Source: Gemmatimonadales bacterium (GTDB lineage: Bacteria; Gemmatimonadota; Gemmatimonadetes; Gemmatimonadales; Gemmatimonadaceae). Taken from it: a stretch of DNA of 37,014 bases. Shown in pieces: positions 5,900-32,886 of this stretch. The notes below the pieces were generated by a model, which saw only the letters and a list, made by a program, of their open reading frames with translations, had not been told where the DNA came from and made no database searches. The stretch spans positions 1-37,014 of the forward strand of contig JBDUEH010000001.1 of the NCBI GenBank assembly GCA_040002555.1, in the 5' to 3' direction. The translations under genes and the position numbers were made by a program. Within the stretch, counting starts at the first letter, position 1. Each line of letters opens with the position of its first letter.

Positions 5900-6015
5900 T
5901 CCAGTTTCACGGCGGTCGAGTGTATATTCACCCGTGCAAAATGCCGCGTTTCCTTCGGCCCTCGCCGAGACCCGGCTCGGACTAGGTCTTCCGTCATTTC
6001 CGTCACAACGCATCA

Positions 6016-9559: not shown

Positions 9560-9749
9560 CTCATAGCAACTTATTGCCCGTCATGGTCAAGATGAAGCTC
9601 GCGCGAGGTATTGCGTGGAGCTATACCTGTTCACATCGGGAAAGCTACCGCCTAATCCTTCAGAGCTGATTGGCGGCGACGGGCGCAAATCTGCGATATC
9701 CGTCGTAGTTTACCTGACAATCCAATTCCTTAACGATCGGCCGGCTTAT

Positions 9750-10445: not shown

Positions 10446-10543
10446 TGTTGCGCCGCTTAGGGGCTGTCAGGCGCATGTGCTACCGCGCTGATAACGTGTA
10501 TCTTCAGCGATGGATTTGAGCCTGAACATGGGCTTTGCCAGAT

Positions 10544-11563
10544 TCAATGCGCCGTACCAGAAGGGACGCCCATGTCGCTACCAAGCGTTTGGCCGAGCCG
10601 ACGGCTGAATATGGCGGCGCCTGACGGCGCGAGGTGGAACGGGTCGAGGAAACCGTCGTCGGGGACCCAGTCCGTGGCATCGATGAGTCTCGCACCCTGC
10701 GCCTCGAGGAGGCGTTGGATGTAGCCCTTGTAATTTGCCCATTCGACCAACCCGTAACGTGGGAGGCGATGCGTCGTTGGCATCGGCATCGCTATGAAAA
10801 CCACCGCCGCCCCCCTGCGATGGACCGTTTGGATGAAACCAAGGATGGGAGCGGTAAGGGGCCGTCGGCGGGCCACCGCCAGACCAATGTGACTTCGAAA
10901 GGACGCGGCGCCGAGTGCCGCGACTTCCGCGAAGTCCTTGTCGCGCCCAAAGCGGCTGGTAGCTTCGGCGGGCAATCCGATTCTTTCAATCCGCCGGCGC
11001 AGCTTCTCAACGCGGCCCCAGATGGCGGTTCGGTCGACGACCATCGGAATAAGGCGTCCCAAGCGGAGCAGAAACTCCAGGCCATGGCTTTCCGAGGCAT
11101 AATAGCGGATGGCTGTGTCGGGATACACGTAGTACACCATAGCCCGATTCCCGGAGAGGGCACTGAAGTCCGCTCTGATGGAATCGGTCAGTTCCGTGTC
11201 GACGAATCCATAGTAAACAGCAGATGGCCGAAGGCGCGCCGAGGCGAGAAGCATCAGGTAGTGCTCTACCGGCGCTGTTGCACCTAAACCGAGGTTTACC
11301 GCTTTTCGTCCGGGGAAGCCTAACTCGAATGCGCGCGCGTCGACGCCTGCGTCAATCAGGGAGTTGCCAAAGAAAAGATCGGTGACCGGGCCGGACTCCT
11401 GGATGGTCTTTAGTCGCTGGCGGGGACTCGAGGATCGCGCGAGAAAGGGCACCGCGATATTCACCAGCACGATTATCCCCAAGACAGTGAGCACCTGAAG
11501 CGCGAAGCGGGTGGGGGCGAACGAGAGGTACCGACCGAGACGCAAGCGGGGGTCAGAAGTCAA
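10544..11563 (-). CDS. Membrane-anchored SGNH-like acyltransferase (DltD/AlgJ/PatB-like)
   Basis: N-terminal TM, FFGNS (Ser nucleophile), NLGLGA, C-terminal DPFHL (DxxH); lies downstream of an MBOAT. Confidence 0.8.
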   Translation of the reverse strand: MTSDPRLRLGRYLSFAPTRFALQVLTVLGIIVLVNIAVPFLARSSSPRQRLKTIQESGPVTDLFFGNSLIDAGVDARAFELGFPGRKAVNLGLGATAPVEHYLMLLASARLRPSAVYYGFVDTELTDSIRADFSALSGNRAMVYYVYPDTAIRYYASESHGLEFLLRLGRLIPMVVDRTAIWGRVEKLRRRIERIGLPAEATSRFGRDKDFAEVAALGAASFRSHIGLAVARRRPLTAPILGFIQTVHRRGAAVVFIAMPMPTTHRLPRYGLVEWANYKGYIQRLLEAQGARLIDATDWVPDDGFLDPFHLAPSGAAIFSRRLGQTLGSDMGVPSGTAH

Positions 11564-11741
11564 TGTAGAGGAATTTTAACGTCTGACCCGAAAAGGCGAC
11601 GATGAAGAGAATGAGCAACCCCCACCAGAATCCCCAGAAGTAGGACGACGTTGAGGGTAGCCGCGGAATATTCGACTCGTCGTGTACGCCACCCAGATAC
11701 TCCAGCGCATTCTTCAGCTTCACCGCGAATTTGCGAAGCAT
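11553..11741 (-). CDS. 62-aa single-TM microprotein with C-terminal FLYIDF (DltX-like Tyr motif)
   Basis: ATG 2 nt after the MBOAT stop; 3' end overlaps the SGNH start by 11 nt; hydrophobic helix FWGFWWGLLILFIVAF followed by KFLYIDF-COOH. Confidence 0.85.
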   Translation of the reverse strand: MLRKFAVKLKNALEYLGGVHDESNIPRLPSTSSYFWGFWWGLLILFIVAFSGQTLKFLYIDF

Positions 11742-11743
11742 AG

Positions 11744-12925
11744 TCAGAACAGCCTACTATAGAAGAAGAGCGCCGTGTCAATGTTCATGGCGAACATTGG
11801 CCACCCGATCGTGACCCCAGCAGCCGTGAGTGCCCAGTTGCCCAGTTGCCCCTTCCATTGAGGCTGGGCTAAATAGCCGCGCCGACGACGATATGTCACC
11901 CACACACGATGTATGCTCAGCATGACGCCGTGCCATGCGCCGAACACCACGAAGTGAGCTGCCGCACCGTGCCAGAGTCCGCTAACGACCATGGTCAGCA
12001 GGATATTTCCGCACACCAACGCAAGTGATCTCCGGGACCCGCCGAGTGGAATGAAGACGTAATCGACCAGCCACTTGTAAAGCGAGATGTGCCAGTGTCT
12101 CCAGAATTCGCTGATATTCGACCTGAAAAAAGGCCAGTCGAAATTTTCCGGGATCCTGATACCGAGAAGCCGGGCAGAGCCGATGGCGATGTCCGAATAG
12201 GCTGAAAAATCGAAGTACGCCTTCCAGCCATAGGCAATGATCCAGAGGAGGAGCGTCAGGCGGTCGGCCTGCGCGATGTCCGACCGGTTCAGATGAACGG
12301 TGAAGCTGCCCAGGACATCAGCGACCGCGAGCTTCTTTACGAGGCCTGTCAGAATCCGTGTGATGCCGCGGTTCCAGTCCAGCGTCCAGTCTGTGCTTGG
12401 ATTGCGCAGCTGGGGGACGAAGTCCTGAAACCGCTTGATCGGCCCCGCCACCATTGTCGGAAAAAAAAGTATGAACGCGAAATATTCGCCCCGGGTACCC
12501 TGTTCTGCCGTTCCCTTGTAGCGATCTGCGGCGTAGTGAATGAACTCGAAAGTGAAGAACGAAATGCCGAGCGGGAGGAATGCTGTTTCCCACCGGAAGG
12601 GATTCCGCCCCAGCGGCATCGTCAGCAACCCGGTCGAGAAGTTCCAGTATTTGAAAACCCCCAGAATCGCTACCGCTATCGCAATACCGACGAGGCATAG
12701 CCTCGATCGCGGGTGGTAAAGGCGGCTGAAGAAACCTTCCCACAACAGGATCAGCAGGCAAGCAGCCGCGATCCATCCGGCAAGCTCGACAACCGAGAAA
12801 TACACGAAGAAAGCGGAGCCGAAAAGGGCGCACACCCATGGTCGCAGCGACGGGCGGGCGACGCGAAACAACATGGCGCAAGGTAGGAGCAGAAAGAGAT
12901 AGTACTCGATCCTCGTGAAGATCAA
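11744..12925 (-). CDS. MBOAT family O-acyltransferase (DltB/AlgI-like, short form)
   Basis: FKYWNF, LPLGISFFTF, FFP.MVAGPI, DFSAYSDIA, ENF..PF, FWRHWHISL..W..DYVFIPLGG, GLWHGA (catalytic His); no C-terminal FIYFQF tail. Confidence 0.95.
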   Translation of the reverse strand: MIFTRIEYYLFLLLPCAMLFRVARPSLRPWVCALFGSAFFVYFSVVELAGWIAAACLLILLWEGFFSRLYHPRSRLCLVGIAIAVAILGVFKYWNFSTGLLTMPLGRNPFRWETAFLPLGISFFTFEFIHYAADRYKGTAEQGTRGEYFAFILFFPTMVAGPIKRFQDFVPQLRNPSTDWTLDWNRGITRILTGLVKKLAVADVLGSFTVHLNRSDIAQADRLTLLLWIIAYGWKAYFDFSAYSDIAIGSARLLGIRIPENFDWPFFRSNISEFWRHWHISLYKWLVDYVFIPLGGSRRSLALVCGNILLTMVVSGLWHGAAAHFVVFGAWHGVMLSIHRVWVTYRRRRGYLAQPQWKGQLGNWALTAAGVTIGWPMFAMNIDTALFFYSRLF

Positions 12926-13770
12926 GCGTGGCTTCCAGGCGAGGCCACGAGCTCGACACTTCCGTACTCCTCAAGGGGATCGCTCTGACCGGTGAGGGGC
13001 ACGGGACGCAGACCAAGCTCGGCGAGCAGTCCCCTCGCGTCAGTGCCGCTCGTGCCCCAGTCCCAGGCAGCCGGGTGCATCTCCACGAAGATGCTCAGCT
13101 TCCGCCGGGAACGCTCGATAAGCCGGCGAGCGCCGGCGAGAACGTCGATCTCATACCCCTCCACGTCGATGAGCAGTACATCCGGATCCTGTCCTTCAGT
13201 ATCGAAATAGTTGTCCAATGACTCCACACGTGTGGAGACCGACTGCGTACTTCGGAGGAACGGATTCGGCTCGTCGAGCCGGCTCATTCCGTCGGCGACA
13301 TTCGTGAAGAGTGTCGCCGTTCCGGCGCGAATACCAACTGCGAGAGGTACGATCGTAACGCGGTCCTCGAATCCGTTGAGACGTACATGCCTCGTCAAAC
13401 ATTGCAGTGCCGCCGGGTTCGGCTCAAACGCCACTACTCGGCCGCGCGGGCCAACGACCCGCGCCATCTGAAGAGCATATACGCCGACGTTCGCGCCAAC
13501 ATCCACGAAAGTCATTCCAGGTGACAGGCGCTCGCAAATTGCGGCTGCAACCTCCGGCTCGTACTCGTGACCCATGCGGTGCCTGTGCCTCGGGTCAATT
13601 CTGAATGACTCGCCGTTGATTTCCCAAGGTATTCCTCGCCCTCCACTCGCCGCCTCGAGAAACGTCTCGTACGGCGGGCGAAACATTCTGACCGCGGCTG
13701 AGTCATGGCCGACCCGTTTCGTCAGCCAGCTCACGGAGGACTGAAGCCGTTCCAGGAAAGCACCGCTCAT
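12922..13770 (-). CDS. FkbM family SAM-dependent methyltransferase
   Basis: FVDVGANVG, AFEPNP, LDNY, IDVEGYE, EMHP. Confidence 0.92.
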   Translation of the reverse strand: MSGAFLERLQSSVSWLTKRVGHDSAAVRMFRPPYETFLEAASGGRGIPWEINGESFRIDPRHRHRMGHEYEPEVAAAICERLSPGMTFVDVGANVGVYALQMARVVGPRGRVVAFEPNPAALQCLTRHVRLNGFEDRVTIVPLAVGIRAGTATLFTNVADGMSRLDEPNPFLRSTQSVSTRVESLDNYFDTEGQDPDVLLIDVEGYEIDVLAGARRLIERSRRKLSIFVEMHPAAWDWGTSGTDARGLLAELGLRPVPLTGQSDPLEEYGSVELVASPGSHA

Positions 13771-13813
13771 GGTTTCGAGACAGTGTGCATCATCCCCCGA
13801 CGCGGGGGGCCCC

Positions 13814-14722
13814 TCACGGTGTCTCTAGCGGAACGTGCGATTCGCCGAAAAAAAGACGTTTGTGAGCAAAGCGGAATGACAATCCGTAACGCGGCGGCTG
13901 ATAATGATTCTCGGCCGTAAATGGTGGGGCGAAGCGGTCCCCGACGAGGTCTTCCCGGACGAAAAACGCGTTGATCCCCGCCAGGTCGCATCCCACAAGG
14001 CTGTAACCAAGTTTGCGCCCGAGCAGCTCATACGCCTTCAGGCTGGCCCCGAACGCCTGGCTGTGATCCCAGTCGCGCCCCGGCTCGAAGGGATGAATCC
14101 ATGATTGATCGGGTGGGATGGCGGCGTTGTACTCAACTATCACAACTCTCGGCCTCAACTCGCCGAGCGCCGCCCAAAGGTGGTACGTATTGAGATCGAT
14201 GTCGAGAGAGAACAGATCAACCTCATCCGGAACCCCCATTTCTCTGAGCAGGCTCATGACGTTGTCCGGGGTCGCGATGCCCTGACGGAGTTTTAGCCGA
14301 GATGCAAGAGATGGCATTTCGCGAAGCCGGGTCGAGACAGCAGAACAATCGTGATGACTGGCCTCGATCCACCAGCCGCTCCAGCCCAGGGCCAGAAGGA
14401 ACGTGGTGTTTGTTTCAGAGCCGTCTCCGACACCGATCTCGAGAAAAGTTCGATTGGGGGAACCGATTCGTCGAAAAATCTCCGCTGTCATCCCGTCTTC
14501 GAGATTCTGCGACCAATACTGCGCGCCGTGAAGCAGGAGCCTGCGAGAGTCTCCGTAACGGACGTCATTCGCCTTGAACGATGCCAGCGCCTGAATCATG
14601 GCGGTCGTCTCGAGAACGCGCAGCGGCCCCGACATCGCGGCAAGGCTGCTCTGAATGTCGCGAAGCTCACGAACGACGGGCAGCCGTCTGTAGACCCGGC
14701 TGAGCCAGCGTGCTGAATTCAC
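13814..14722 (-). CDS. FkbM-like (Methyltransf_21-type) methyltransferase
   Basis: SQNLEDG, FLEIGVGDG.ETNT, LFSLDID, PRVVIVEYN, GASL, NAFFVR. Confidence 0.8.
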   Translation of the reverse strand: MNSARWLSRVYRRLPVVRELRDIQSSLAAMSGPLRVLETTAMIQALASFKANDVRYGDSRRLLLHGAQYWSQNLEDGMTAEIFRRIGSPNRTFLEIGVGDGSETNTTFLLALGWSGWWIEASHHDCSAVSTRLREMPSLASRLKLRQGIATPDNVMSLLREMGVPDEVDLFSLDIDLNTYHLWAALGELRPRVVIVEYNAAIPPDQSWIHPFEPGRDWDHSQAFGASLKAYELLGRKLGYSLVGCDLAGINAFFVREDLVGDRFAPPFTAENHYQPPRYGLSFRFAHKRLFFGESHVPLETP

Positions 14723-15015
14723 GGGTGTGACTCCTTGCCGTCTCGTGGGGCCGCATCAAGAACATCCGTCAGCGCGCGGATGTGGCGCTCCGCTGAAAAT
14801 CTGCCGGCAACCTTAAAACGCCATAGCTTAAGTGTCTGTGATGCTCCAATGCTCTCGCCACTCCTGCGAATCGTACAATCTCCTCGATGGGCCGCCGGCA
14901 TGGGCATCGCGATCCAGTATACGGATGCGCCTCTCTTGTTCGCAAGCCTGAACCCGGCAAGAACCGCCGAATTCAAAGACGTATGCTTTTCAACGCGCCA
15001 CATACACGTCATCAA
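14719..15015 (-). pseudogene. Chimeric remnant: SGNH-like fragment fused to a GT4 C-terminus
   Basis: RGASVYWIAMPMPAAHR matches RGAAVVFIAMPMPTTHR of 10544..11563; the ending RFSAERHIRALTDVL resembles GT4 C-termini. Confidence 0.7.
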
Positions 15016-16011
15016 CTACGCGTCGGCCGAATCATCAGACAGTTTTTTTCTCAGGACATAGAAAAGAACTCCGTCCGGCCCGCGCCTGGACGCGGCGTGC
15101 GCTCTTAACCCGGCTATAGGCTGGAATTCGCCGCCGCCGTCAAATTCAAGTTCTACAAAACTGTCGAACATTTGCGCCAATTCATCGATGAACGTCTCAG
15201 GATCAAAACCCGCGCGTGTAAGTCCGTAAGGCCAATATTCAGTGGCCAGATACTCGGTATTGCTCAGAATATTCCTGGCCCCTTTGAGAATCGCCGGCTC
15301 AGAACCCTGGCAGTCAAGCTTCATGAGCCGGACAGGCCCTCCGCTACCAGCCTTCGCCAAATCCGGTAGCGCGTCATCGAGGGCCACCGCCTCAACGACG
15401 ATCACGGACCTGCGAGATTCGTTCTCCAGCTCCGGCAGCACTGCGGTAGCGGAAGCCGTTTCAAATCGAACCCTGTGATCTCCGTAGTTTATAGGCGACA
15501 ATTCAAATTGGACCTCGCCGGGCTTATTGAGCGCTGCCAGCCGATATGCGGTAACAGTCTCAACCACTCCGTTGATTCGCAGGTTCTCCGACAGAAGGTC
15601 GTAGTTCCCCGGATCAGGTTCGAAAGCGATGACTCGGCCTGTCTTGCCAACCGCGCGCGCTAACTGTACGGAAAACCAACCGAGGTTGGCCCCGACATCG
15701 ACAATCGTGTCGCCTTCTGAAACGAGACCGGTCAGGACTTTAGTCTCGAGTTTCTCCCAAACACCGTCGATGGCTAGTGACCACCCCACGACCGTATCCC
15801 GGGGGTCGAACATGAACCGCCCATAATCGGTCGTCGCGCAAAGCCGGGAAATGCAAGTGTGCTCGCGAATGAGTCCAGCAAATCCTGCCCTCGGCCCGAA
15901 CGTGTCGAGAAATCTCTGTCCCAGTTTATGGTTCGAGGTTAATAGCCGTTGTCGGCGCCATTGACGCATGCTGTCAGGGATCATGTACACAAGTAAGGAC
16001 CGGAGGCTCAT
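15016..16011 (-). CDS. FkbM family SAM-dependent methyltransferase
   Basis: GVWE..ET, VDVGANLG, AFEPDP, KLDCQGSE, EYWP. Confidence 0.92.
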   Translation of the reverse strand: MSLRSLLVYMIPDSMRQWRRQRLLTSNHKLGQRFLDTFGPRAGFAGLIREHTCISRLCATTDYGRFMFDPRDTVVGWSLAIDGVWEKLETKVLTGLVSEGDTIVDVGANLGWFSVQLARAVGKTGRVIAFEPDPGNYDLLSENLRINGVVETVTAYRLAALNKPGEVQFELSPINYGDHRVRFETASATAVLPELENESRRSVIVVEAVALDDALPDLAKAGSGGPVRLMKLDCQGSEPAILKGARNILSNTEYLATEYWPYGLTRAGFDPETFIDELAQMFDSFVELEFDGGGEFQPIAGLRAHAASRRGPDGVLFYVLRKKLSDDSADA

Positions 16012-16053
16012 AGATCGTTGGTTGACACAACAACACTTCCAGGTGGAGTCACA

Positions 16054-16887
16054 CTAATTCCTCATCGCGGGCCGTGCGGACCACTCCACTACGTCGCTGG
16101 ATATGTCACTCCTCGGAACGACATCATAACCAAGTCTCCTAAGGTAAGTCTGTGCAGCTTCGACTGGTATTTCGAGCGCGCGCATTCGCGGCTTATTTTG
16201 CTCATACCACACCTCCTCGACCATCCGCCCAGCGAGGAGGCGTTCGCACCCCTCCAGAGCCCAGCTGTCAGCTCCCTCCGCGTCGATCTTGAGGAGCGCT
16301 ATCGGCCTATTGGATGCGACGTAATCATCTACCCTTATTACGGCCACATCGATCGTCGAAGCACCAGCCTTCGCGGCGAAGCCTCCCCATCCGGTCTGCT
16401 CCGCTGGACCAACGTCGAACGCAAGCCTTCCTGAAGCAGCCCCAGCCGCCATTGGCACTACATCGATTCGGTCCTCGAAGCCGTTTCGAGAGACGTTACT
16501 TCTCAGCATTTCGATGATCCGCGGTGATGCCTCGAACGAGATGCAGCGGTTGTTTTTTCGTGCAGATGCCCAGAGGAGACTGAAGTATCCAATGTTTGCG
16601 CCGACTTCAATCATCGTTCCGCCCGCGCGCGCAAGTGCGGATACGCGTCGAGTCAGCAATCTCTCATAAATTCCGGTAAACGCGATGCAGTCAGAGATGA
16701 CGTCGCCGGGTTTCAAACGCATTGTTACCCCAGGCGCGTAACGCAGGTCTGCGGTGTGATAGAGCTCGCTCCATCTCGCATGCTTTCCGCGGTAAGCGCG
16801 TGACCAAAGAGCGATGGCAAGTCGGTCTGGAAGAGCGCGAAGCAAAAGGGGACGCCTGGCGGATGGAAAGGTTGCCGGTAACGTCAT
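16054..16887 (-). CDS. FkbM family SAM-dependent methyltransferase
   Basis: GIYE, IEVGANIGYFS, SFEASP, LKIDAEGAD; ATGA overlap with the upstream GT4. Confidence 0.92.
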   Translation of the reverse strand: MTLPATFPSARRPLLLRALPDRLAIALWSRAYRGKHARWSELYHTADLRYAPGVTMRLKPGDVISDCIAFTGIYERLLTRRVSALARAGGTMIEVGANIGYFSLLWASARKNNRCISFEASPRIIEMLRSNVSRNGFEDRIDVVPMAAGAASGRLAFDVGPAEQTGWGGFAAKAGASTIDVAVIRVDDYVASNRPIALLKIDAEGADSWALEGCERLLAGRMVEEVWYEQNKPRMRALEIPVEAAQTYLRRLGYDVVPRSDISSDVVEWSARPAMRN

Positions 16888-17957
16888 CTCACATCCTTGC
16901 GGTACACCGCCACAGTTTCGCTAACGACATCGTCCCATGTCCTACCCGAAGCGACCTTTTGGCCGGCCAAAGCGACTCGCTCGCGAAGCGACCGGTCTTC
17001 TTTCAAAATCAGGAGTCCGGCGACGATGTCACTGATATCAGACCCTGCAATCCAGCCGGATGCGCGATCAGTAACCAGATCGGCAATCCCCGCATCCCGT
17101 GTCAGAATCACTGGCACTCCATACGCCATGGCCTCGGCGACGACCATCGCAAAAGTGTCATAAATGGTGGGGTGAAGCAGCACGTCCGCGGCCGAATACG
17201 CAGGCAAAATGTCATCCAGTCCGCCAGCCCAGTGCACGCGGTCGGAAACGCCGAGGGATTTCGCGTTTTCCAAATACGTGGTCGATTCGGACCGGCTCAC
17301 AACAAGGAGATGGACCCCAGGTGCGCGGGACACAGCGCTTATGGCTCTATCAAGCCCCTTTCGAGCGTCACCAGCGTACAACGCTACGAACGCATCTGGA
17401 GGCAGCCCCAGTCCCAACCGCGCCGAGCGCCGGGGGGGCAGATTGCGGGCGGGCGGGAACCCGTGATGAACGACGAAGACGTCGCGAGTCCTTCCGTAAA
17501 ATCGTGCGACGTCGGTTGCCGCCCGTTTGCTTGGCGCAATCACGACGCGGGCACGCCGAAAGAGATCTCTCTCCCTTGCCGTCACGTATCCACCAAGCCA
17601 TCTCTCTCCGGGACGGGATCTTACGCCGGCCCGCCGCGCCGCATCACGCCATGCAGCGAGCACGATGTGGGTCGTTACCACGTCGGCATAGCGAGTAACC
17701 CAACCCTGCGCATGAACGACGTCGTGCTTGCGGCGGACACTCGCGAACCCCGCAGGGAAAGTGAGGATTCTCGTGTATGCACTGGCGCCTACCGCCGGAA
17801 CGCGAATCACGGTAACGCCTTCTGCGACCGGCGAACGAATGCTGGCCGCGTATAAAGTGACGTCGTGGTTTCGCGCCAGTCGGTTTACAAGTTCCACTGC
17901 ATAGCCGCCGGTACCATCTGCCGCATAAAAGTCGTGGGTCACAAAACCGATATTCAC
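16884..17957 (-). CDS. Glycosyltransferase family 4
   Basis: MNIGFVTHDF..GTGGY, RKGL, PTIYDTFAMVVAEAMAYG. Confidence 0.9.
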   Translation of the reverse strand: MNIGFVTHDFYAADGTGGYAVELVNRLARNHDVTLYAASIRSPVAEGVTVIRVPAVGASAYTRILTFPAGFASVRRKHDVVHAQGWVTRYADVVTTHIVLAAWRDAARRAGVRSRPGERWLGGYVTARERDLFRRARVVIAPSKRAATDVARFYGRTRDVFVVHHGFPPARNLPPRRSARLGLGLPPDAFVALYAGDARKGLDRAISAVSRAPGVHLLVVSRSESTTYLENAKSLGVSDRVHWAGGLDDILPAYSAADVLLHPTIYDTFAMVVAEAMAYGVPVILTRDAGIADLVTDRASGWIAGSDISDIVAGLLILKEDRSLRERVALAGQKVASGRTWDDVVSETVAVYRKDVR

Positions 17958-21185: not shown

Positions 21186-22697
21186 TTAGAACGCCGGAGC
21201 CGCCCAACGGATAATGCGCTGTGGCAGGTATTGGGATAGCGGCGACGTAAGTACCGCAACCCTCATTGCCGCGGTGTACACAACCGTGACCCCTATTGCA
21301 GTGAGCGCAACGCCGAAAAGGCTCTCCGGAACCAACCACTGCTGAAGCAAAGCGCATCCCGCCGCAAGAGGGATAAGGCGCAAGGCCCAAGGCACTAGCG
21401 GGCGCCAATAGTCGCGAAAAGTGGATTCCGTGATCGATAGGAGTGCTGAATAGTTAGCCGGCAGGCTCACCAGTGTAACGCCGGCAATTAGCCCGATCGC
21501 CGCACCGGCGATTCCGACACGGGGTAACAGAAATGAAGCCACACCCATTGATACCAGGCCGTCGATCAAATTCACGATAGCGATTCGCCTCTCTGCACCG
21601 AATGCAAAGATCGTGTAAACAGCGCTGACATTCAGATGCCGAAGAAGCATACCTATCAGCATCAAACCGGTGATTGCGAACCCGCCGAAGTGTTGCCTAC
21701 CAACCCAAGTCCAGACAAATGCGCGATTTGTCGCCAGAACGACACATACGACGAGCCCGGTTACCAGGAGCATTCCCTGGGTTAGCGCGCAAGAAACTCT
21801 TGCGATTGCTGAAGGAGTCGAAAAGCCCCTCATCTCCGAAAGTCCTGGCACGGCGACTTGCATCAGTATCTGCGGCTGATTCGCAAGAACGGCGATGAGC
21901 TTCCCCGTAATGGCGTAGGTGACCACGGCCTCCGCCCCAAGAAGTTTGCCGATAAGAAGAACGTCCGTGCCGGCCAGTAACATCTGTGCAACCTGAGCAA
22001 CGCTTACCCAACCGCCCTGCGCCAGCAGTTTGCGTTGGGCGCGAAAGTCAAAAACAGGAAACCGTCGTGGCACGGTTTCCGGAAACCGAAGCAATAACCT
22101 GAATATCGAGCAAAAGGATATAGAGCATTGTGTCAATATCCATCCCGCTGCCAGTGATTTGAGAGCATACCCTCGATACACCAATAGCACCGTCGCAATC
22201 GTACCCAAACCCCATGCGAGCAATTGCAGAATACCGAGGAACCGATTGTCCTGCAGGCCAGCCAGGACTGCTTGAGGAATCCGAAGTGGAAACAGGAAAA
22301 CGTAAACGACGAGCAGCATCGTAATAGGAATTCGGATTGGTTCCCACGGCGAAGGTAAGAAGATAAGCAGTAGCGCTGCTGCCAAGCCTGCCAACAGCGT
22401 TTGTACCCCGACTATAGGCAGAATAGAGGCGATCCGATGGGAAATTTCAACAGCGCGGCTCGTTGCGTCACCGCTCCCTGCGGCACCCGCGACTGACCTC
22501 GGTAGAATCGCGACAATCCCAAAATCGAGGAGTCCGAGATAAACAAGAACCTGGGCGACCACCACCCATAAACCGTACTGGCTCGTTCCCAGCGTGCGAA
22601 GAAGGAACGGCGTAAGCCACAGTCCCGCAGCCATAAGGACCATCTGGTTTACGTAACCGAACCCGACGCCATAGGCAAATTTCCTGGTGCGGCTCAC
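21186..22697 (-). CDS. wzx: Wzx polysaccharide flippase (MOP family)
   Basis: Polytopic membrane protein; TPFLLRTLG..QYGLW, LLDFG, TDVLLIGKLLGAEAV..Y. Confidence 0.9.
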   Translation of the reverse strand: MSRTRKFAYGVGFGYVNQMVLMAAGLWLTPFLLRTLGTSQYGLWVVVAQVLVYLGLLDFGIVAILPRSVAGAAGSGDATSRAVEISHRIASILPIVGVQTLLAGLAAALLLIFLPSPWEPIRIPITMLLVVYVFLFPLRIPQAVLAGLQDNRFLGILQLLAWGLGTIATVLLVYRGYALKSLAAGWILTQCSISFCSIFRLLLRFPETVPRRFPVFDFRAQRKLLAQGGWVSVAQVAQMLLAGTDVLLIGKLLGAEAVVTYAITGKLIAVLANQPQILMQVAVPGLSEMRGFSTPSAIARVSCALTQGMLLVTGLVVCVVLATNRAFVWTWVGRQHFGGFAITGLMLIGMLLRHLNVSAVYTIFAFGAERRIAIVNLIDGLVSMGVASFLLPRVGIAGAAIGLIAGVTLVSLPANYSALLSITESTFRDYWRPLVPWALRLIPLAAGCALLQQWLVPESLFGVALTAIGVTVVYTAAMRVAVLTSPLSQYLPQRIIRWAAPAF

Positions 22698-22967
22698 CCT
22701 GCGCCTTCGGGATCAATCCGGAACTGTTCTCCGTTGGTGGTCCAGGGAATGCCGTTCCCCCCGCTGGCAATCGAGAGGAAAAACTTGTATGGACGACGCA
22801 TCGCTCGAACGAAAATGGAATACCGCCCCAACCGGACCGGATATTTGTCTATTATCATGGCTCATCCAATAATATGAACTTTCTTGCAACCGTGTCGTGC
22901 GTCGGCTCTTCCGTCCAACCCCCTCAGAATCTGAGTTGGGTCAAGTCACGCGTGAGAACTTGTCCGC

Positions 22968-24140
22968 GTGCCAACAGGCATCGGAAGGTTGAGTGACGCC
23001 ACGAGGATCCGAATCTGTCTGGTCAGTGACATGCTTGCCGAAGGCTGGCCGAGCATGGACCTCTTCTCGGAAATGCTCACGAGAGAGCTTCCGAAGGCAG
23101 ACTCGTCCATTGATGTCGACAGTATCCGCCTTCCGCTAAAAAAGCGTCTCGGCAGGCTAAGTGGAAACGCCAAAGGTTCAGCAACTGATCGGCTGCTTGC
23201 CCGGCATCTTGATTACCCCCGAGCGGTCCGACGCAAAACACCATCCGCCGACGTATATCATGTCCTCGACCATACCTATGCGGCGTCAATCAATTCACTG
23301 GGAGACCGCACAACAGTCGTCACCTGCCATGATCTCGACGCGTTCGAAGTGCTCTACTCGCAGACCACGTTCGCCGAGCACATACTCGCCTACTTCGCGC
23401 GCATCACGCTGCGCGGTCTCAAGAGTGCTACACATGTCGTGTGTGATTCCGCGACCATCCAACGCGAGATCGTATCCCGCGGTTGGGTTGAATCGGCAAG
23501 CACAAGTCTCATACCAGCCGGGATTCATCCCACCTGCACCGTTGTGCCTGGCGACGCAGCGGATCGGACTGCGGAATCACTTCTTGGCCCTGCAACGGGC
23601 CCGGAAATACTTCACGTCTCGAGCACTATACCACGAAAGCGGATCGACACTCTTGTTGGATCCTTCGCATCAGTGCTCGGCGATCGCCCCGACGCACGCC
23701 TCATCAGAGTTGGTGGCCCGTTCACCAAATCCCAGGCGAGAATGGTATCGGAACTTGGACTTGAAAACTCAATCACCGTCTTGCCGTTCCTCGACCGGGC
23801 GACCCTCGCAGCCGTGTATCGCCGCGCCACGCTCGTCGTCCTCCCGTCCGAACGCGAAGGTTTTGGGCTACCGGTGATTGAAGCCATCGCCTGCGGCACG
23901 CCAGCACTCGTGAGCGACATCGAAGTGCTACACGAAGTCGGCGCCAGCGCTGTTTCATATGCGCCCGTCGGTGATGACGACGGATGGGCAACGGCAATTC
24001 TGGATATGCTCGACGAACACGACAAACATCCTCAACGTTGGTCGGAGCGAATTGCAGCCGGTATTGTACATTCGCGGCAGTATTCATGGCGTCAACACGC
24101 CCGCCAGCTCGTTCAGCTTTACCATACTCTCGCGCACTAG
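22968..24140 (+). CDS. Glycosyltransferase family 4
   Basis: EGWPSMD, VTCHDL, RKRI, PSEREGFGLPVIEAIACG; an alternative TTG start lies at 22989. Confidence 0.9.
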   Translation: MPTGIGRLSDATRIRICLVSDMLAEGWPSMDLFSEMLTRELPKADSSIDVDSIRLPLKKRLGRLSGNAKGSATDRLLARHLDYPRAVRRKTPSADVYHVLDHTYAASINSLGDRTTVVTCHDLDAFEVLYSQTTFAEHILAYFARITLRGLKSATHVVCDSATIQREIVSRGWVESASTSLIPAGIHPTCTVVPGDAADRTAESLLGPATGPEILHVSSTIPRKRIDTLVGSFASVLGDRPDARLIRVGGPFTKSQARMVSELGLENSITVLPFLDRATLAAVYRRATLVVLPSEREGFGLPVIEAIACGTPALVSDIEVLHEVGASAVSYAPVGDDDGWATAILDMLDEHDKHPQRWSERIAAGIVHSRQYSWRQHARQLVQLYHTLAH

Positions 24141-24161
24141 CCCGCGTCCCGCCGTCGAACC

Positions 24162-25376
24162 GTGCGAATTGCATTCCTTAATCCCTCAGGAACAGTCGGA
24201 GGTGCCGAACGTTGTCTTCTGGATCTGCTCCGCGGCATCCGGGAGTCGGAGCCGGATTGGGAGCTCCATGTCATCGTCTCCAGTCATGGCGAGTTGGCCG
24301 AGGAGCTTGCGAAGCTGGAAATTCCGTGTGACGTCGTTCCGTTCCCGTCCGCTCTATCCCAGCTTGGAGACGCCAGCTTGAGGGGTTGGAGCAGACGGAT
24401 GCGTGTCACCGTGCGAGCGGCCGTCGCCATTCCATCAATCCTTCGCTACGCGTCCCGGCTCCGGCAACTTCTGGTCAGGTATCAGCCAGACGTGGTTCAC
24501 ACCAATGGACTGAAGATGCACGCAATCGGCGCATTGGCGAAACCGGCGGGTGCAGTTCTCGTCTGGCATATGCACGACTTCATTTCGTCCCGGCCGGTCA
24601 TGGCTCGCGTTCTTCGCTTTCTGTCCCCACGCTGTGCACTATGTGTCGCGAATTCAAGAAGTGTCGGCGACGATTCAAGAGCCACCTTTGGGAGCAGGCT
24701 TCCGATCCGGACAATAATGAACGGTGTTGATCTTCTCTCGTTCCGGCCCGACGGAGCGAAGCTGGACCTGGACGGGATGTTCGGGGTCGTTCGCTCGGGT
24801 TCGGCGCCGGTGAGGATCGGGCTCGTAGCAACGATGGCGCCGTGGAAAGGTCACTCCGTTTTTCTTCGCGCCATAGCTCTTATCGATCGATCGATACCAA
24901 TTGCGGCATACATAATCGGCGGGCCCATCTATGCAACCGGGACTGAGCAGGAGAAGCTCGAGAGACTGAAGGGGATGGCGGCATCATTGGGTATTTTGGA
25001 TCGAGTATTTTTTACGGGCCATATCCAGGATGTCCCTTCCGCTATGCGCGCGCTCGACGTTATTGTTCACGCCAGCACCTTGCCGGAGCCCTTCGGCCTC
25101 GTCATCATCGAGGCGATGGCCACCGGACGCCCAGTAATAGTGAGCCCGCTTGGTGGCGCCGCCGAAATTGTCGCGGAGGGATCCTTTGCTCTTCGCGCTG
25201 AGCCGGGAGACCCCACGAGCTTGGCTCATCAGATGACTCTGCTCGCGCTGGATGGCAAACTCCGTCAGGCGATGGGCGAGGCTGGGAGAAGCGAGGCTGA
25301 GCGAAAATTCGCTTCACTCAGACTTTCGAAAGAATTCATTCAGGCATATGCGACCATCCGTCCTACGCGCAGTTGA
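24162..25376 (+). CDS. Glycosyltransferase family 4
   Basis: MRIAFLN..GGAERCL, WHMHD, WKGH, EPFGLVIIEAMATG. Confidence 0.92.
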   Translation: MRIAFLNPSGTVGGAERCLLDLLRGIRESEPDWELHVIVSSHGELAEELAKLEIPCDVVPFPSALSQLGDASLRGWSRRMRVTVRAAVAIPSILRYASRLRQLLVRYQPDVVHTNGLKMHAIGALAKPAGAVLVWHMHDFISSRPVMARVLRFLSPRCALCVANSRSVGDDSRATFGSRLPIRTIMNGVDLLSFRPDGAKLDLDGMFGVVRSGSAPVRIGLVATMAPWKGHSVFLRAIALIDRSIPIAAYIIGGPIYATGTEQEKLERLKGMAASLGILDRVFFTGHIQDVPSAMRALDVIVHASTLPEPFGLVIIEAMATGRPVIVSPLGGAAEIVAEGSFALRAEPGDPTSLAHQMTLLALDGKLRQAMGEAGRSEAERKFASLRLSKEFIQAYATIRPTRS

Positions 25377-25558
25377 GAGTACTTCATGTTACCGCTGGCA
25401 ATATCCAGGGCGGGGTTGAGAGATCTCTCGAGACTATTTCGCTGGACAGAGGCTTGCCCCCGCATGAAATCGGAAATTGCCATCGAAACCTTGATGAGAA
25501 ATCCGGCATCGGCCGACGCGATCCGATCGCGCGGAAAGGCGAAGGCTTAAACACGTGA
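25373..25558 (+). pseudogene. Collapsed GT4 gene (N-terminus only)
   Basis: MRVLHVTAGNIQGGVERSL is a GT4 N-terminus but the ORF is only 61 aa; it overlaps both neighbours by 4 nt. Confidence 0.75.
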
Positions 25559-26907
25559 CAGCGATTACAATCTGTCTGCTGGCTTTTGCGTTCACTTTCT
25601 GGGCAAGAACACAGTCGCGAAGCGCCGGGCTCTTGAGCGTGTTGGCGTTTGGCTATTCATACGGAATTCTCCGTGCAAATCTCACCACGGCAGGGTACTT
25701 CATCTTTGACTCGGCAGCCGCTGGATTGTACCTGGCCGAGCTTAGAACGCACCTGTCCCCCGCTCAAAGACTCAGAGAGAATCGGTTGCGCGACTGGGTA
25801 GTCGCGCTGGCACTTGTTCCCTCCCTTTTGCTTTTGCTTCCAAGGCAGGATGTTCTAGTACAGCTCGTCGGATTTCGCAGTGCCATTCTTTTTCTTCCAT
25901 TCATCCTTCTGGGAGCGCGGCTCGAGCGGGACGACTTCAGGAAGCTGGCGATTGGAGTAGCCATCCTGAACCTGGTTGCTTTTTCGTTTGCGGGATATGA
26001 ATTCGTCAACGGGATCAACTCCTTATATCCGGTGACAAGTGTCACATCTATCATCTACAGATCCACTTTGCAAGACGCCTCGTTTTATCGGATACCCGCC
26101 ACGTTCTCGAGCTCTGCTTCATATGGGGGTACCATGGTTGTCACGATTCCGCTGCTCGGTATGGCAATCTCGGGCAAACATGTCAAAGGCCTATGGTACG
26201 CCGTATGTTTCGCCGGGCTCGCGATCGGCACTGTCGGAGTCTTCGTGTCTGCGTCACGTAGCACTGCCGTTTTGGCCATTGTTGCCCTGGTCGCCATACT
26301 GATTCAGAATCGCCGCACTCCGCGCGTCGCGATGGCACTCGCGGGCGGAGCCATTATCGTCGCCACTCTCGTGGCCAGCCAAACACGTTTACAACGCTTT
26401 CTTAGCCTCGGAGACACCGAATATGTTGCGCAGCGCCTTATCGGAAGCGCCAACGCTGGCATAGTGGACATAGTCATGCGGTACCCGTTCGGAAACGGAC
26501 TCGGGGCCGGTGGCACGAGCCTTCCATATTTTATCGAGAAGCGGGTGGAGGGAGCGATCTGGCTCGAGAATGAGTACGCCCGCCTGGCACTCGAGCAAGG
26601 CGCTATTGGCCTCTTTTTATGGATCGGCTTTATCGCCTGGGTACTTGTTCCCTCGCACGGCGACTCGCGCACGCAGGGAAAACTGGCGATACGAATTCTG
26701 ACGGCCGCAATATTCGCGACTGGAATGGTGGGAACCGGGCTCCTTGCCGCTATCCCGGGTACCTGCTTCCTCTTCCTTATGATAGGGGTGTTGTTCAACG
26801 ACTTGTCGCCTTCAAGAGCGCCTGGGCGTATTCAGCGGCCTCGCGGTCGAATGGTTCGAAAGCCGGTAGCTCCCGCGCTTACCGCAACGGCACGCCTGCC
26901 TGGATGA
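25555..26907 (+). CDS. wzy: Wzy-like polysaccharide polymerase / O-antigen ligase family membrane protein
   Basis: Polytopic; R..ATF, SASRS, PFGNGLG, ENEY..LALEQGAIGL (Wzy_C-like). Confidence 0.78.
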   Translation: MTAITICLLAFAFTFWARTQSRSAGLLSVLAFGYSYGILRANLTTAGYFIFDSAAAGLYLAELRTHLSPAQRLRENRLRDWVVALALVPSLLLLLPRQDVLVQLVGFRSAILFLPFILLGARLERDDFRKLAIGVAILNLVAFSFAGYEFVNGINSLYPVTSVTSIIYRSTLQDASFYRIPATFSSSASYGGTMVVTIPLLGMAISGKHVKGLWYAVCFAGLAIGTVGVFVSASRSTAVLAIVALVAILIQNRRTPRVAMALAGGAIIVATLVASQTRLQRFLSLGDTEYVAQRLIGSANAGIVDIVMRYPFGNGLGAGGTSLPYFIEKRVEGAIWLENEYARLALEQGAIGLFLWIGFIAWVLVPSHGDSRTQGKLAIRILTAAIFATGMVGTGLLAAIPGTCFLFLMIGVLFNDLSPSRAPGRIQRPRGRMVRKPVAPALTATARLPG

Positions 26908-28070
26908 CTAGTCCCGGAGGCCTCAGTCGGCCTTCGATGCAATGGGCAATACTTACCCCGGAGTTTCCGCCTGCGTCTGGTGGAGTCAGCGACTACTCCT
27001 CCCTCGTCGCAAAGAGCCTCCTGGCTGCGGGTGATACTGTAAGCGTATGGTTTCCGGGTTCAACGAAACAGGAGCAACGTCAGGGTACCCCGTGGCTCAT
27101 CCCGTTGCAAAAAGGTTTCAGGCTGTCCGGCCTTAACCTTTTGTTGAGGGATCTCGACGCGTTGCCGCCCGATGCGAGGGTGCTTCTTCAGTATGCGCCT
27201 CACGCGTTTGGTTACAAGGGCATGAACATTCCGATCGTCAGAGCTCTTTCCAGATTCAACCGCAACCCATTGGACGTGATGTTCCACGAGGTGGCATACC
27301 CCCGCCTCCGCGGTGACACCGTTCGGCATCAAGCGCTTTCCATAGTGCAATTCAGCATGGCACGACAGATAGCAGCAAGAGCTGACCGGATTTTTGTCTC
27401 CACTGAGGCTTGGCGACCAGTGCTGGCGCCTTGGGCGCGGGATCCAGCATCCATTGTCTGGCTCCCGGTTCCGAGTAACTTGCCGAAACGCGTCCGGCCG
27501 GAAGATACGGCCGCGGCCAGGCTGAGCCTTGGAGTAAGCAATGGCACTATCCTCGGGCACTTCAGCACTTACGCGCCAGGCATAACGGCGTTCCTGTCGG
27601 CCTCAGTTCCTTCGCTTCTTCACGCTGACGCAAGCCGCGCGTGCGTGCTGATGGGCAGAGGCGCACGGAATTTTCGGAATGCGATGTCACTGGCGAACCC
27701 GGCGATAAGCTCGCAACTGTTCTCGTTCGAAGGTTCGCCAGCACTCGAGCTCGCTGGCTTTATCTCGGCGTGTGACGTGATGCTCCAGCCCTATCCCGAC
27801 GGGGTTACTGGTCGGCGAACCACCGTAATGGCCGCAATAGCGCTAGGCGTCCCCACCGTTACAACGAATGGCGTGCTTACCGAGGATATCTGGAAAGAAA
27901 GTGGAGGCGTCGCGCTAAGCCCGGCCCACATGACTACCGCGTTTGCGCCTACGGTCGAAGAGCTCGTTCGCAATGCTGTGATCCGTGCTCGACTCGGGCG
28001 GGCCGGGAAGAGATTGTATGAGGCGGCGTTTGACGTCTCGCACACTGCTAGGCTTCTGCGTCAAATTTGA
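26904..28070 (+). CDS. Glycosyltransferase family 4
   Basis: ATG 26904 in ATGA overlap with wzy; EFPP..GGVSDYS, MFHE, QPYPDGVTGRRTT..AA..LG. Confidence 0.85.
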   Translation: MTSPGGLSRPSMQWAILTPEFPPASGGVSDYSSLVAKSLLAAGDTVSVWFPGSTKQEQRQGTPWLIPLQKGFRLSGLNLLLRDLDALPPDARVLLQYAPHAFGYKGMNIPIVRALSRFNRNPLDVMFHEVAYPRLRGDTVRHQALSIVQFSMARQIAARADRIFVSTEAWRPVLAPWARDPASIVWLPVPSNLPKRVRPEDTAAARLSLGVSNGTILGHFSTYAPGITAFLSASVPSLLHADASRACVLMGRGARNFRNAMSLANPAISSQLFSFEGSPALELAGFISACDVMLQPYPDGVTGRRTTVMAAIALGVPTVTTNGVLTEDIWKESGGVALSPAHMTTAFAPTVEELVRNAVIRARLGRAGKRLYEAAFDVSHTARLLRQI

Positions 28071-28090
28071 GTATTAGCTCCAAAATGTTG

Positions 28091-28136
28091 TGGCATAACG
28101 TATGCCTACTCCGAAGGTATCATTACCTTGTATAAT
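28091..28136 (+). promoter_or_regulatory. Candidate promoter/operator: sigma54-like TGGCA-N7-TGC, two palindromes and TATAAT
   Basis: TGGCATAACGTATGC has GG-N10-GC spacing; GGCATA-N3-TATGCC at 28092-28106; AAGGTA-N4-TACCTT at 28114-28129; TATAAT at 28131-28136, all in an AT-rich gap. Confidence 0.45.
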
Positions 28137-28203
28137 GCTAGCGACACTTCAGCATGACGATGTTTTGAATTCTTCGATCTGACTCCCCAGGCAACTGACG
28201 AAA

Positions 28204-29223
28204 TTGAAGACGTTAATAACTGGGGGAGCGGGCTTCATCGGCAGCAATGCCGCAGCCCATTATATCCGAAAAGGAAGCGCAGTTGTTATTCTTGACAATT
28301 TGGCCAAGGTTCGCTCGAGAACCAATCTGGAATGGCTGCGTCAAATTGGCAGTTTCACCCACATCCAGGCGGACATCCGTGACGGTGACGCTGTAGACGC
28401 GGCAATGCAAGAGCACGCCGATGCAGACCTTGTTCTTCATCTCGCCGGACAGGTAGCAGTTACAGCCTCCCTCGTAAACCCGAGACATGATTTTGAGGCG
28501 AATGCCCTTGGCACTTTCAACATACTCGAGGCCGTTCGAAAAAATGCGCCTCAAGCAACCCTGATCTACTCTTCCACCAACAAAGTCTACGGGGGAATGG
28601 GAGATATCCCGGTCATTGAAATGCCGGAACGCTATTCATATGACGGTGCGGTTTCCGGAATAGCCGAAACGAGGGGGCTCGATTTTCACTCGCCCTACGG
28701 GTGTTCCAAAGGGGCTGCCGATCAATATGTTCGAGATTATCACCGTATCTTTGGCTTGAAAACGGTCGTGTTCAGACAGTCCTGTATTTACGGGCCTCGC
28801 CAGTTTGGTGTTGAGGATCAGGGGTGGGTCGCATGGTTTACGATTGCAGCCCAGCTTGGCCGACAAATCACAATTTATGGCGACGGCAAGCAGGTGAGGG
28901 ATATCCTGTTCGTGGATGATTTACTGGAGGCGTTCGATTCCGCACATGACCGTATCGATCGGGTAGCGGGACGCGTCTACAACATGGGCGGTGGACCCGA
29001 AAACACGATATCCTTGTGCGAGCTGGTTACAAATCTCGAAGCTCGCCTTGGGAGGAGGATCGATGTTCAATCATCCGATTGGAGAGCAGGCGACCAGCGC
29101 ATTTACGTAAGCGACACGCGTCGTGCGGTCGCTGATCTGGCTTGGCAGCCAACGGTATCCGCAAATGCAGGAATTCAGCGCCTGTTCGACTGGGTGGCTG
29201 AACACGCAGGAGAATTCCACTGA
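28204..29223 (+). CDS. rfbE: NAD-dependent epimerase, CDP-paratose 2-epimerase (RfbE)-like
   Basis: TGGAGFIGS, HLAGQVAVT.S, YSSTNKVYG, SPYGCSKGAADQY, DQGWVAWF, GDGKQVRD, GDQ. Confidence 0.85.
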   Translation: MKTLITGGAGFIGSNAAAHYIRKGSAVVILDNLAKVRSRTNLEWLRQIGSFTHIQADIRDGDAVDAAMQEHADADLVLHLAGQVAVTASLVNPRHDFEANALGTFNILEAVRKNAPQATLIYSSTNKVYGGMGDIPVIEMPERYSYDGAVSGIAETRGLDFHSPYGCSKGAADQYVRDYHRIFGLKTVVFRQSCIYGPRQFGVEDQGWVAWFTIAAQLGRQITIYGDGKQVRDILFVDDLLEAFDSAHDRIDRVAGRVYNMGGGPENTISLCELVTNLEARLGRRIDVQSSDWRAGDQRIYVSDTRRAVADLAWQPTVSANAGIQRLFDWVAEHAGEFH

Positions 29224-30437
29224 CAAGACGTCGCCGGCTCCGCATTCTTCACGTTGGGAAGCACTACCCGCCATTCATGGGAGGGATTGAGACTCATCTC
29301 CGCACGCTCGTTGAGGGCCTTGTAGATCGGACCGATATAGACGTTGTGGTGGCGCATTCAATCCCCGAAACGGTAGTGGAACGCATTGGCGGTGTCCGAG
29401 TGAAACGTCTCAAGAGGCAATTCTCGTTCAGGGGAGCACCGATTTGCCTGGGTTACGGGGCGGCGATCCGTGAGTCTAAGGCGGACATCGTGCACCTTCA
29501 CCTCCCAAATCCCGCCGCAGTCATTGCCTTGTTGTGGAGCCGCTATTCCGGTCCTCTAGTTGTGACTTACCACAGCGATATCGTTCGTCAACGCTTCCTG
29601 GGCAAGCTGTTCGAGCCCGTCTTGCGCATCCTGCTCGCGAGGTGCGATGCAATCATCGCTACCTCCGATGCGTACGCAAGTTCGTCGCCCACACTAAAGG
29701 CTTTTTCATCGAGTTGCAGGGTCATTCCCTACGGCATTGATCTCGCGTTGTTCGTCTCGCCTTTTCCCAACAAAGTGGCCGAGATCCGGACTCGCTACGG
29801 AAAGCGCATTGTGCTAGCGGTTGGGCGCTTAATCTACTATAAAGGCTTTGACATTCTGATTGACGCGATGAAAGAAATTGAAGCGCATCTCGTCATCATC
29901 GGCGATGGGGCGCTAAGGGATTCCCTTTCCAGTCAGGCGAAAGCGCTGGGAATCGCCGATCGTGTCACGTTTCTCGGAGAACTTCAAAATGAAGAGATCG
30001 CTGTGTTTTATCGAGCGGCCGATGTTTTTGTTCTTCCCTCCGTGGCGCGAAGCGAAGCCTTCGGGATTGTCCAGATCGAGGCGATGGCTTCTGGAACTCC
30101 CGTCATCAACACGAGCCTGGACTCAGGAGTGCCCTCGGTGTCACTCGACGGACTGACCGGCCTGACCGTTCCCCCCCGAAGTGTCAAGGCGTTGGCGAGA
30201 GCCATACGTCTTTTGCTGGATAACCCCGACCTCGCGCTGCGCTTCGGCGATGCTGGCGGGCTCCGCGCGAGGGAACGCTACTCTGCCGAAAGAATGTGCG
30301 ACGACACCCTTCGCTTATATTCGGATATTGATTCACGCAGACGGGCGTCAATCCAGGAAGTCTCACTTAGCGACACGACGGCTGGCCGGATTTCACGCAC
30401 TAAAGTGCGGAACACACAGGATAGGTATGCAGTCTGA
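29220..30437 (+). CDS. Glycosyltransferase family 4 (probable CTG start)
   Basis: RILHVGKHYPP lies in frame upstream of ATG 29277; YHSD, GRLIYYKG, SEAFGIVQIEAMA. Confidence 0.9.
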   Translation: MTRRRRLRILHVGKHYPPFMGGIETHLRTLVEGLVDRTDIDVVVAHSIPETVVERIGGVRVKRLKRQFSFRGAPICLGYGAAIRESKADIVHLHLPNPAAVIALLWSRYSGPLVVTYHSDIVRQRFLGKLFEPVLRILLARCDAIIATSDAYASSSPTLKAFSSSCRVIPYGIDLALFVSPFPNKVAEIRTRYGKRIVLAVGRLIYYKGFDILIDAMKEIEAHLVIIGDGALRDSLSSQAKALGIADRVTFLGELQNEEIAVFYRAADVFVLPSVARSEAFGIVQIEAMASGTPVINTSLDSGVPSVSLDGLTGLTVPPRSVKALARAIRLLLDNPDLALRFGDAGGLRARERYSAERMCDDTLRLYSDIDSRRRASIQEVSLSDTTAGRISRTKVRNTQDRYAV

Positions 30438-32877: not shown

Positions 32878-32886
32878 CCACTTGGC

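Follow-up and report, generated by a model that had tools for sequence, protein, structure and literature searches.

The window analysed here is a stretch of 37,014 nucleotides (nt) from a Gemmatimonadales bacterium (assembly GCA_040002555.1, contig JBDUEH010000001.1). At positions 10544..12925 it carries three adjacent genes, hereafter the triad, which encode an MBOAT-family protein, a small membrane protein and a protein of predicted SGNH fold (Table 1). A first-pass annotation had proposed that they form an acyl relay resembling DltB, DltX and DltD, with the acyl-carrying tyrosine on a separate microprotein. All three open reading frames (ORFs) were recovered on the minus strand at the same coordinates, and their descriptions were confirmed. 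The MBOAT has 393 amino acids (aa), contains WHG and ends in FYSRLF, with no F-x-Y-x-x-F tail; the 62-aa peptide has a single hydrophobic stretch and ends in FLYIDF; and the third protein, anchored by a predicted N-terminal helix (residues 11-38), contains G-N-S68 and D307-P-F-H310. The tight packing of the genes was borne out for the gap between MBOAT and peptide, but the 11-nt overlap between peptide and SGNH gene exists only if the latter starts at TTG 11563 (339 aa). A start at TTG 11545 leaves a 7-nt gap, and GTG 11494 gives the 316-aa database call P0002.

Table 1. Positions of the triad, of its predicted functional residues and of neighbouring genes in the window
Feature	Position	Strand	Evidence or remark
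Tail-less MBOAT, 393 aa	11744..12925	-	Pfam PF03062, E 9.9e-33; TTG start
62-aa membrane microprotein	11553..11741	-	ORF; ATG 2 nt past the MBOAT TGA
FLYIDF hexapeptide, predicted acyl shuttle	11556..11573	-	Tyr59 codon 11565-11567, position -4
N-terminally anchored SGNH-fold protein, 316-339 aa by start codon	10544..11563	-	AlphaFold model, structure searches
His319 of LWHG, predicted catalytic base	11969..11971	-	Conservation; aligns with DltB WHG
Ser68 of G-N-S, predicted nucleophile	11360..11362	-	Ser in 128/130 homologues
D307-P-F-H310, predicted catalytic Asp/His	10634..10645	-	Asp in 127/130, His in 129/130 homologues
Co-directional upstream run: GT4, three FkbM methyltransferases, one ORF with no Pfam match	12922..17957	-	
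Wzx-like flippase, GT4s, Wzy-like ORF, Wzc-like kinase, Wzi	21186..34551	.	Pfam

Conservation of the free-standing microprotein

The triad consists of three separate genes in a conserved order, and the split between MBOAT and peptide is genuine. Used by itself as the query of a word-indexed homology search, the peptide retrieved nothing but itself; relatives were reached with a profile of the SGNH protein and with a DNA pattern for the peptide tail. The SGNH profile, built from 6 sequences, matched 176 metagenome stretches, and the best 80, some of which are near-duplicates, were used for the counts on the SGNH side. In 77 of these 80 loci (74 by script and 3 at a contig edge), the SGNH gene is immediately preceded by a free-standing ORF with an F-x-Y-I-D-F end. 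The other three comprise a locus that is cut off (L078) and one locus present in two assemblies (L009 and L010). The MBOAT gene is visible in 61 loci and has its own stop codon in all 61, and 17 of the 19 loci with no visible MBOAT have fewer than 700 bases upstream. The stop codons, frames and gaps between MBOAT and peptide vary; the gaps range mostly from -11 to +10 nt, with outliers of 1,129 nt (L020) and 76 nt (L025), and the peptide of L046 appears broken.

The consensus tail of the metagenome loci is GQ[TSA]S[KR]F[IV]YIDF. Tyrosine occupies position -4 in all 71 distinct tails, encoded by TAC in 49 and by TAT in 22, and all three stop codons occur; the counting pattern itself demanded the tyrosine, yet every one of the 77 tails that were found agrees with it. 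Over the final 11 codons in 22 sequences, the mean proportions of synonymous and nonsynonymous differences (pS and pN) are 0.87 and 0.03, which indicates purifying selection on the protein. These statistics are restricted to loci L004-L083; from L084 onward the invariance of the tail in our alignment A2 is partly built in, since the search pattern required the tail.

Among the species genomes of GTDB, the tail pattern was found at no fewer than 119 loci (about 140 by estimate), and wide flanks were obtained for 80 of them. The order MBOAT-peptide-SGNH, a synteny that the first-pass annotation had singled out for checking, is present in full in 65 of the 80. The remainder consists of one locus with its SGNH gene about 1.5 kb further on, five Armatimonadota loci with MBOAT and peptide only, three loci lacking the MBOAT (one at a contig edge, two with frame-broken SGNH genes), two true fused MBOATs, one apparent fusion with overlapping frames and three chance matches. 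In all four of these Armatimonadota genomes that were tested, an SGNH gene of the family lies elsewhere (E<=1.6e-70).

In the genome studied here, F-x-Y-x-x-F closes 3 of the 75,332 stop-to-stop segments in six frames, where 0.54 would be expected. These are the triad peptide, a fused MBOAT on contig C205 and a DUF5989 peptide on contig C23, and all three are membrane-protein tails beside an SGNH-like gene. The motif alone is modestly enriched in the genome; it is the conservation across genomes that settles the matter. The window is matched by two contigs, assembled from two public runs that belong to a single study, with zero differences across the MBOAT stop and the entire peptide gene; as one of the runs is possibly the source sample, this agreement is not independent of the window. 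The expectation that such a small gene is easily missed by annotation was not borne out: it is usually called and merely unnamed, appearing in RefSeq as 'hypothetical protein' in Cystobacter (the Cystobacter fuscus copy is WP_002623193.1) and Acidicapsa.

The three proteins and their predicted complex

His319 of the MBOAT is invariant in all 35 aligned family members, and we infer a catalytic role for it by analogy with His315 of PatA, as described in passages of PMC12148441. The MBOAT scores 170.7 bits with the NCBIfam model LTA_dltB, under the cut-off of 375. Like the fused AlgI/PatA type, it has the motifs PLGG[SN]R and AGPI; DltB has other residues in place of PLGG[SN]R. Four triad MBOATs extend 119-123 residues past FWxxWH, which is similar to DltB (116-122) and shorter than the fused forms (183-254). 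A first, quick tree contained 108 rows (L106, L238, L294 and duplicates left aside), and a careful tree, which has no true root, was built from 41 chosen rows. In the 41-row tree the triad MBOATs form their own clade (support 100/100), sister (93/96) to two carrier-less, tail-less Bacillota MBOATs (L237 and L238), and all 24 fused MBOATs lie across a 99/97 branch from all 17 tail-less ones. The triad MBOATs are separated from DltB by a branch with 100/98 support, and an approximately unbiased (AU) test did not reject a union of triad and DltB (p 0.061). Tail-less MBOATs with no F-x-Y-x-x-F peptide within about 1.5 kb were also seen in Bacteroidota (L274, L275 and L279) and Pseudomonadota (L306); in L306 an SGNH-like gene comes after the MBOAT, together with a short transmembrane (TM) ORF that is cut off at the locus edge.

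The family peptides, 57-62 aa long, consist of an N-terminal helix with a conserved [ED][YF]LxG, a Pro-rich linker, one TM helix and the tail GQxxKFxYIDF, and their N-terminal half is conserved in its own right. The hydrophobic stretch of the window peptide gives 19-residue Kyte-Doolittle means of 1.6-1.9 for segments starting at residues 32-42. The peptide has no Pfam match. Neither it nor three homologues match Pfam DltX (PF12459), which recognised Staphylococcus aureus DltX as a control (E 2.1e-14), and hhalign against the latter gave a probability of 0.8%. It also does not match DUF5989 (PF19451), for which two other peptides were positive (E about 1e-24). The triad peptide profile aligned with the L238 peptide at 95% probability. 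In the Atlas the peptide sits in unnamed clusters of 104-171 members; a DltX cluster listed for it only at 0.86 is a lead only. No significant PDB sequence match and no solved relative were found.

The AlphaFold model of the SGNH protein has a pLDDT of 91.5, and SGNH folds top both structure searches (best Z 13.6, root-mean-square deviation (rmsd) 3.3 over 157 residues). The matches include PatB (Z 12.0) and DltD (Z 11.4, rmsd 5.0 over 244 residues), and esterases are among the best. DltD gave the longest alignment, 244-249 residues compared with about 145-195 for the other rows. The canonical block III Asn is absent, blocks being assigned by sequence only. By sequence, the window protein does not match Pfam DltD, two of six homologues match it weakly (best E 8e-05), hhalign to DltD gave 7.9%, and a search of PDB sequences with the SGNH profile found no match.

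A model of the three chains reached an ipSAE of 0.79, compared with 0.10 for the best of three controls. Of solved pairs, 116 of 157 attain the pass mark, and of mismatched pairs 2 of 215, counts that are only rough for a three-chain job with custom alignments. The model runs share at least 66% of contacts, and the partner pLDDT is at least 69. In the model, residues 36-54 of the peptide, its TM helix, are predicted to contact MBOAT helix 185-204 and SGNH residues 13-28 (the anchor) and 168-183, and the predicted interface also takes in peptide residues 10, 16-19 and 21 and MBOAT residues 245, 260 and 264. The N-terminal helix of the peptide is predicted to touch the presumed cytoplasmic face of the MBOAT. 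The prediction supports binding of the peptide to both partners, and the score may partly reflect likeness to known MBOAT folds.

A proposed acyl relay, its donor and its acceptor

We consider it likely that the conserved cassette works as a trans-membrane acyl relay like DltB/DltX/DltD but outside the Dlt pathway. In this scheme the MBOAT would take the acyl group of a cytoplasmic thioester and load it on Tyr59 of the free-standing peptide. From there the group would pass to Ser68 of the SGNH protein, which faces the periplasm and would transfer it to an envelope glycan, here probably the Wzx/Wzy/Wzc polysaccharide of 21186..34551. Passages of PMC12148441 define the FXYXXF motif and describe, as demonstrated, transfer by PatA/PatB from acetyl-CoA to the Tyr of this motif and on to the SGNH Ser; binding of the DltX tail to DltD is supported in passages of PMC13653941. 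By analogy with PatA/PatB and Dlt chemistry, acyl-Tyr and acyl-Ser intermediates are quite probable. On the same analogy, a capsule-type polysaccharide is a reasonably likely acceptor at this locus, and an acyl-CoA, most simply acetyl-CoA, is marginally favoured as donor. The diderm host assumed in the first-pass annotation is consistent with an Omp85 match in the genome (149 bits).

Several observations weigh against this relay or against its proposed donor and acceptor. The three-chain model has no confident contact for the peptide tail (residues 55-62), so that the tyrosine expected by the first-pass annotation between the MBOAT His and the SGNH Ser is not placed. In the SGNH protein, the probable block II position, assigned by sequence only, is Gly in 112 of 130 homologues; according to passages of PMC12148441, Gly in block II goes with hydrolases rather than with PatB/OatA-type transferases. 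The SGNH gene of L009/L010 has neither MBOAT nor peptide in the 4.3-5.9 kb upstream. Concerning the donor, a Bryobacteraceae locus (L084, 9534-11583, minus strand) carries FkbH and a free acyl carrier protein (ACP) directly upstream of the triad MBOAT, and an adenylation gene and an ACP, unlinked to the triad, occur on contig C321 of this genome. Concerning the acceptor, 14 of 46 genome loci have a GT2 or GT4 glycosyltransferase (GT) no further than about 8 kb away, against 9 of 54 control contigs, the latter being contigs of this genome and a rough control. When the two closest genes on each side were inspected by eye, about 13 of 40 loci showed glycan genes there.

The strongest competitor, which we regard as possible but somewhat unlikely, keeps the same relay and gives it a general envelope component as acceptor (peptidoglycan, lipopolysaccharide, glycolipid or protein glycan), the position in a capsule locus being incidental. 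It accounts for the 32 of 46 genome loci with no GT2/GT4 within about 8 kb, for neighbours that are often housekeeping genes, for the unlinked parts in Armatimonadota and for the lack of any fourth gene recurring across lineages. Because GT neighbours are few and no fourth gene recurs, the cassette appears to be portable and often stands alone. At the present locus, however, there is a 4-nt overlap between the MBOAT start and the stop of the FkbM gene upstream of it, in a co-directional run within a large glycan locus, and in several unrelated lineages the triad lies beside GTs, WecA-like genes, FkbM or Wza. The earlier suggestion that the triad acylates an exported polysaccharide therefore fits this locus but does not extend to the family, and only in this genome is a capsule acceptor a reasonable guess.

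By Pfam, the window constitutes a glycan locus: besides many GT4s it holds FkbM methyltransferases, a carbamoyltransferase and genes resembling Wzx, Wzc and Wzi; the Wzy-like ORF scores below the Pfam cut-off. On its two sides, within 9615-16887, the triad has four FkbM-family methyltransferases and an unassigned ORF (13814-14722), pointing to a heavily O-methylated polysaccharide. The upstream FkbM/GT4 run is local context and is not conserved with the triad in relatives. At 4907-7773 on the plus strand, a TM-anchored SGNH-like ORF is followed by a carbamoyltransferase, with no F-x-Y-x-x-F peptide close by.

A carrier-bound donor acting in trans on the same tyrosine relay, such as FkbH-made glyceryl-ACP, an aminoacyl carrier or fatty-acyl ACP, would bring the logic closer to Dlt and is rather unlikely. 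The L084 gene pair suggests a glyceryl-ACP donor in that lineage, and the AU test leaves a triad and DltB clade unrejected. Adenylation-domain genes were found in the flanks of 4 of 108 loci (L020, L064, L142 and L157, the last two labelled delta proteobacteria), where they are large and lie a few kb from the triad. Contig C321, with the unlinked adenylation gene and ACP (G000:C321), also carries an ORF that we take, from its motifs, to be flavin-dependent halogenase-like. On the other side, no free ACP was found at 107 of the 108 loci, L084 being the exception, in a screen so insensitive that the profile recovered only one of its own training sequences. The first-pass annotation was right that the window has no DltA or DltC by Pfam. 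Furthermore, no DltA reaches the cut-off in this genome, which is 86% complete (best TIGR01734 score 135.5 against 559.85), or in five other triad genomes, and the PLGG[SN]R motif of the MBOAT, which may or may not track the donor, is that of the fused type. An FkbH search in the genome itself was blank, as were its controls. The acyl-CoA donor proposed earlier stays plausible as the simplest reading, with L084 standing against it.

On another reading, the MBOAT itself places the acyl groups, the SGNH protein is an esterase by which they are removed or edited, and the peptide is a structural subunit only. The Gly at the probable block II position, the esterases among the best structural matches and the unplaced tail speak for this; the near-invariant F-x-Y-I-D-F at the exact C-terminus with its synonymous variation, the match to an experimentally defined shuttle, the MBOAT with no tail of its own and the length of the DltD alignment make it improbable. 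Lastly, a fused AlgI-type MBOAT might have been split here by a local frameshift, a nonsense mutation or an assembly error, and cases of this sort are found at other loci (L256, a probable frameshift nested among fused forms; L153, the apparent fusion in two overlapping frames). This reading has a negligible chance and is refuted by the conservation data, namely the 61 separate MBOAT stops with differing stop codons, frames and gaps, the conserved N-terminal half of the peptide and the matching contigs from two runs.

Relation to known systems, distribution and significance

DltB, DltX and DltD form the core of teichoic-acid D-alanylation, as described in PMC12148441 and PMC13653941, which also refer to work by Schultz, Snow and Walker (2023). 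The triad resembles this core in having a tail-less MBOAT of similar length, a separate single-TM F-x-Y-x-x-F microprotein and a membrane-anchored SGNH protein. Unlike Dlt, its hosts are diderm, no dltA or dltC is linked, and the order is MBOAT-peptide-SGNH instead of dltXABCD. The MBOAT stays below the DltB cut-off and falls in another clade, and the peptide is unrelated to DltX by profile and has an extra conserved N-terminal helix. The Dlt-like label of the first-pass annotation therefore describes the architecture but not the MBOAT, with its PLGG[SN]R and its separate clade, or the peptide.

Like PatA/PatB, AlgI/AlgJ and WssH/WssI, which often lie in glycan loci, the triad has no linked carrier or ligase, its MBOAT shares the PLGG[SN]R and AGPI motifs, and the present copy lies in a glycan locus. 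It differs from the fused AlgI/PatA type in that a gene of its own encodes the hexapeptide, the MBOAT lacks the two extra TM helices and lies outside the 24-row fused group, and the probable block II Gly is not replaced. Two Bacillota genomes hold similar carrier-less cassettes, L237 (110-2625) and L238 (1261-3694), in which a tail-less MBOAT is accompanied by a neighbouring F-x-Y-x-x-F peptide of 36-38 aa and by an SGNH gene. Unlike in the triad, this peptide is shorter and has no N-terminal helix, the gene order of L238 differs, and the SGNH protein is only distantly like that of the triad (42% probability). No paper on these Bacillota cassettes was found.

The genome of the window contains three different F-x-Y-x-x-F architectures. 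On contig C205 (2461-5101), a fused MBOAT ending in FIYFQF lies beside an SGNH-like gene. On contig C23 (6665-11092; L325), a carbamoyltransferase, a TM gene, a 47-aa DUF5989 peptide ending in FIYTIF and an SGNH/TPR gene form one run; the TM gene is presumably SxtJ-like. It is possible that this run is a Tyr-shuttle for carbamoyl groups with no adjacent MBOAT. A Pelagibacter locus (L106) likewise has a DUF5989 peptide.

By record title, the family occurs at no fewer than 110 genome loci: Acidobacteriota 46, Verrucomicrobiota 29, Armatimonadota 8, Planctomycetota 7, Myxococcota 4 (including Cystobacter fuscus), five small groups 8, whose labels are possibly wrong, and unlabelled 8. Dropped from the 119 were L132 (TGG, no stop), the chance matches L134, L148 and L193, and the fused or probably fused tails of L106, L159, L174, L177 and L182. 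An SGNH homologue search found none in 60 relatives, and a Wzc-like gene is present in 33 of 60 genomes of the genus. Because the family was not found among 300 other genomes of the phylum, the triad was probably acquired by lateral transfer. The GC content of the triad (0.585) equals that of the genome (0.584), and nothing points to misbinning or very recent transfer.

We found no description of the triad family in the literature searched, subscription papers and supplements being outside its reach; the MBOAT of Cystobacter is annotated as AlgI-like by JGI and NCBI. Passages of PMC12148441 (2025), with which preprint passages agree, state that MBOAT/SGNH pathways other than Dlt have no DltX-like microprotein, which would restrict the arrangement to D-alanylation in Gram-positive bacteria; the triad family is a counterexample to that statement as given there. 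We tentatively raise, while thinking it unlikely to hold in full, the idea that a tail-less MBOAT with a free Tyr microprotein is an old and widespread architecture for acylating bacterial envelopes, neither peculiar to Dlt nor the outcome of a recent split. The AlgI/PatA type may then have arisen by fusion of the peptide, because tail-less and fused MBOATs separate at the 99/97 branch, and the N-terminal helix of the peptide might serve to gate the acyl donor or to select it.

As chemistry, the proposed relay would not be new. It would give a hypothetical protein of 57-62 aa, so far unnamed and found mostly in abundant soil phyla with poorly characterised envelopes, a role open to testing, and cultured, non-pathogenic hosts exist in Cystobacter fuscus, Acidicapsa dinghuensis and Verrucomicrobium sp. 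BvORR106. It would also mean that a separate shuttle peptide is decoupled from a carrier protein and D-alanine.

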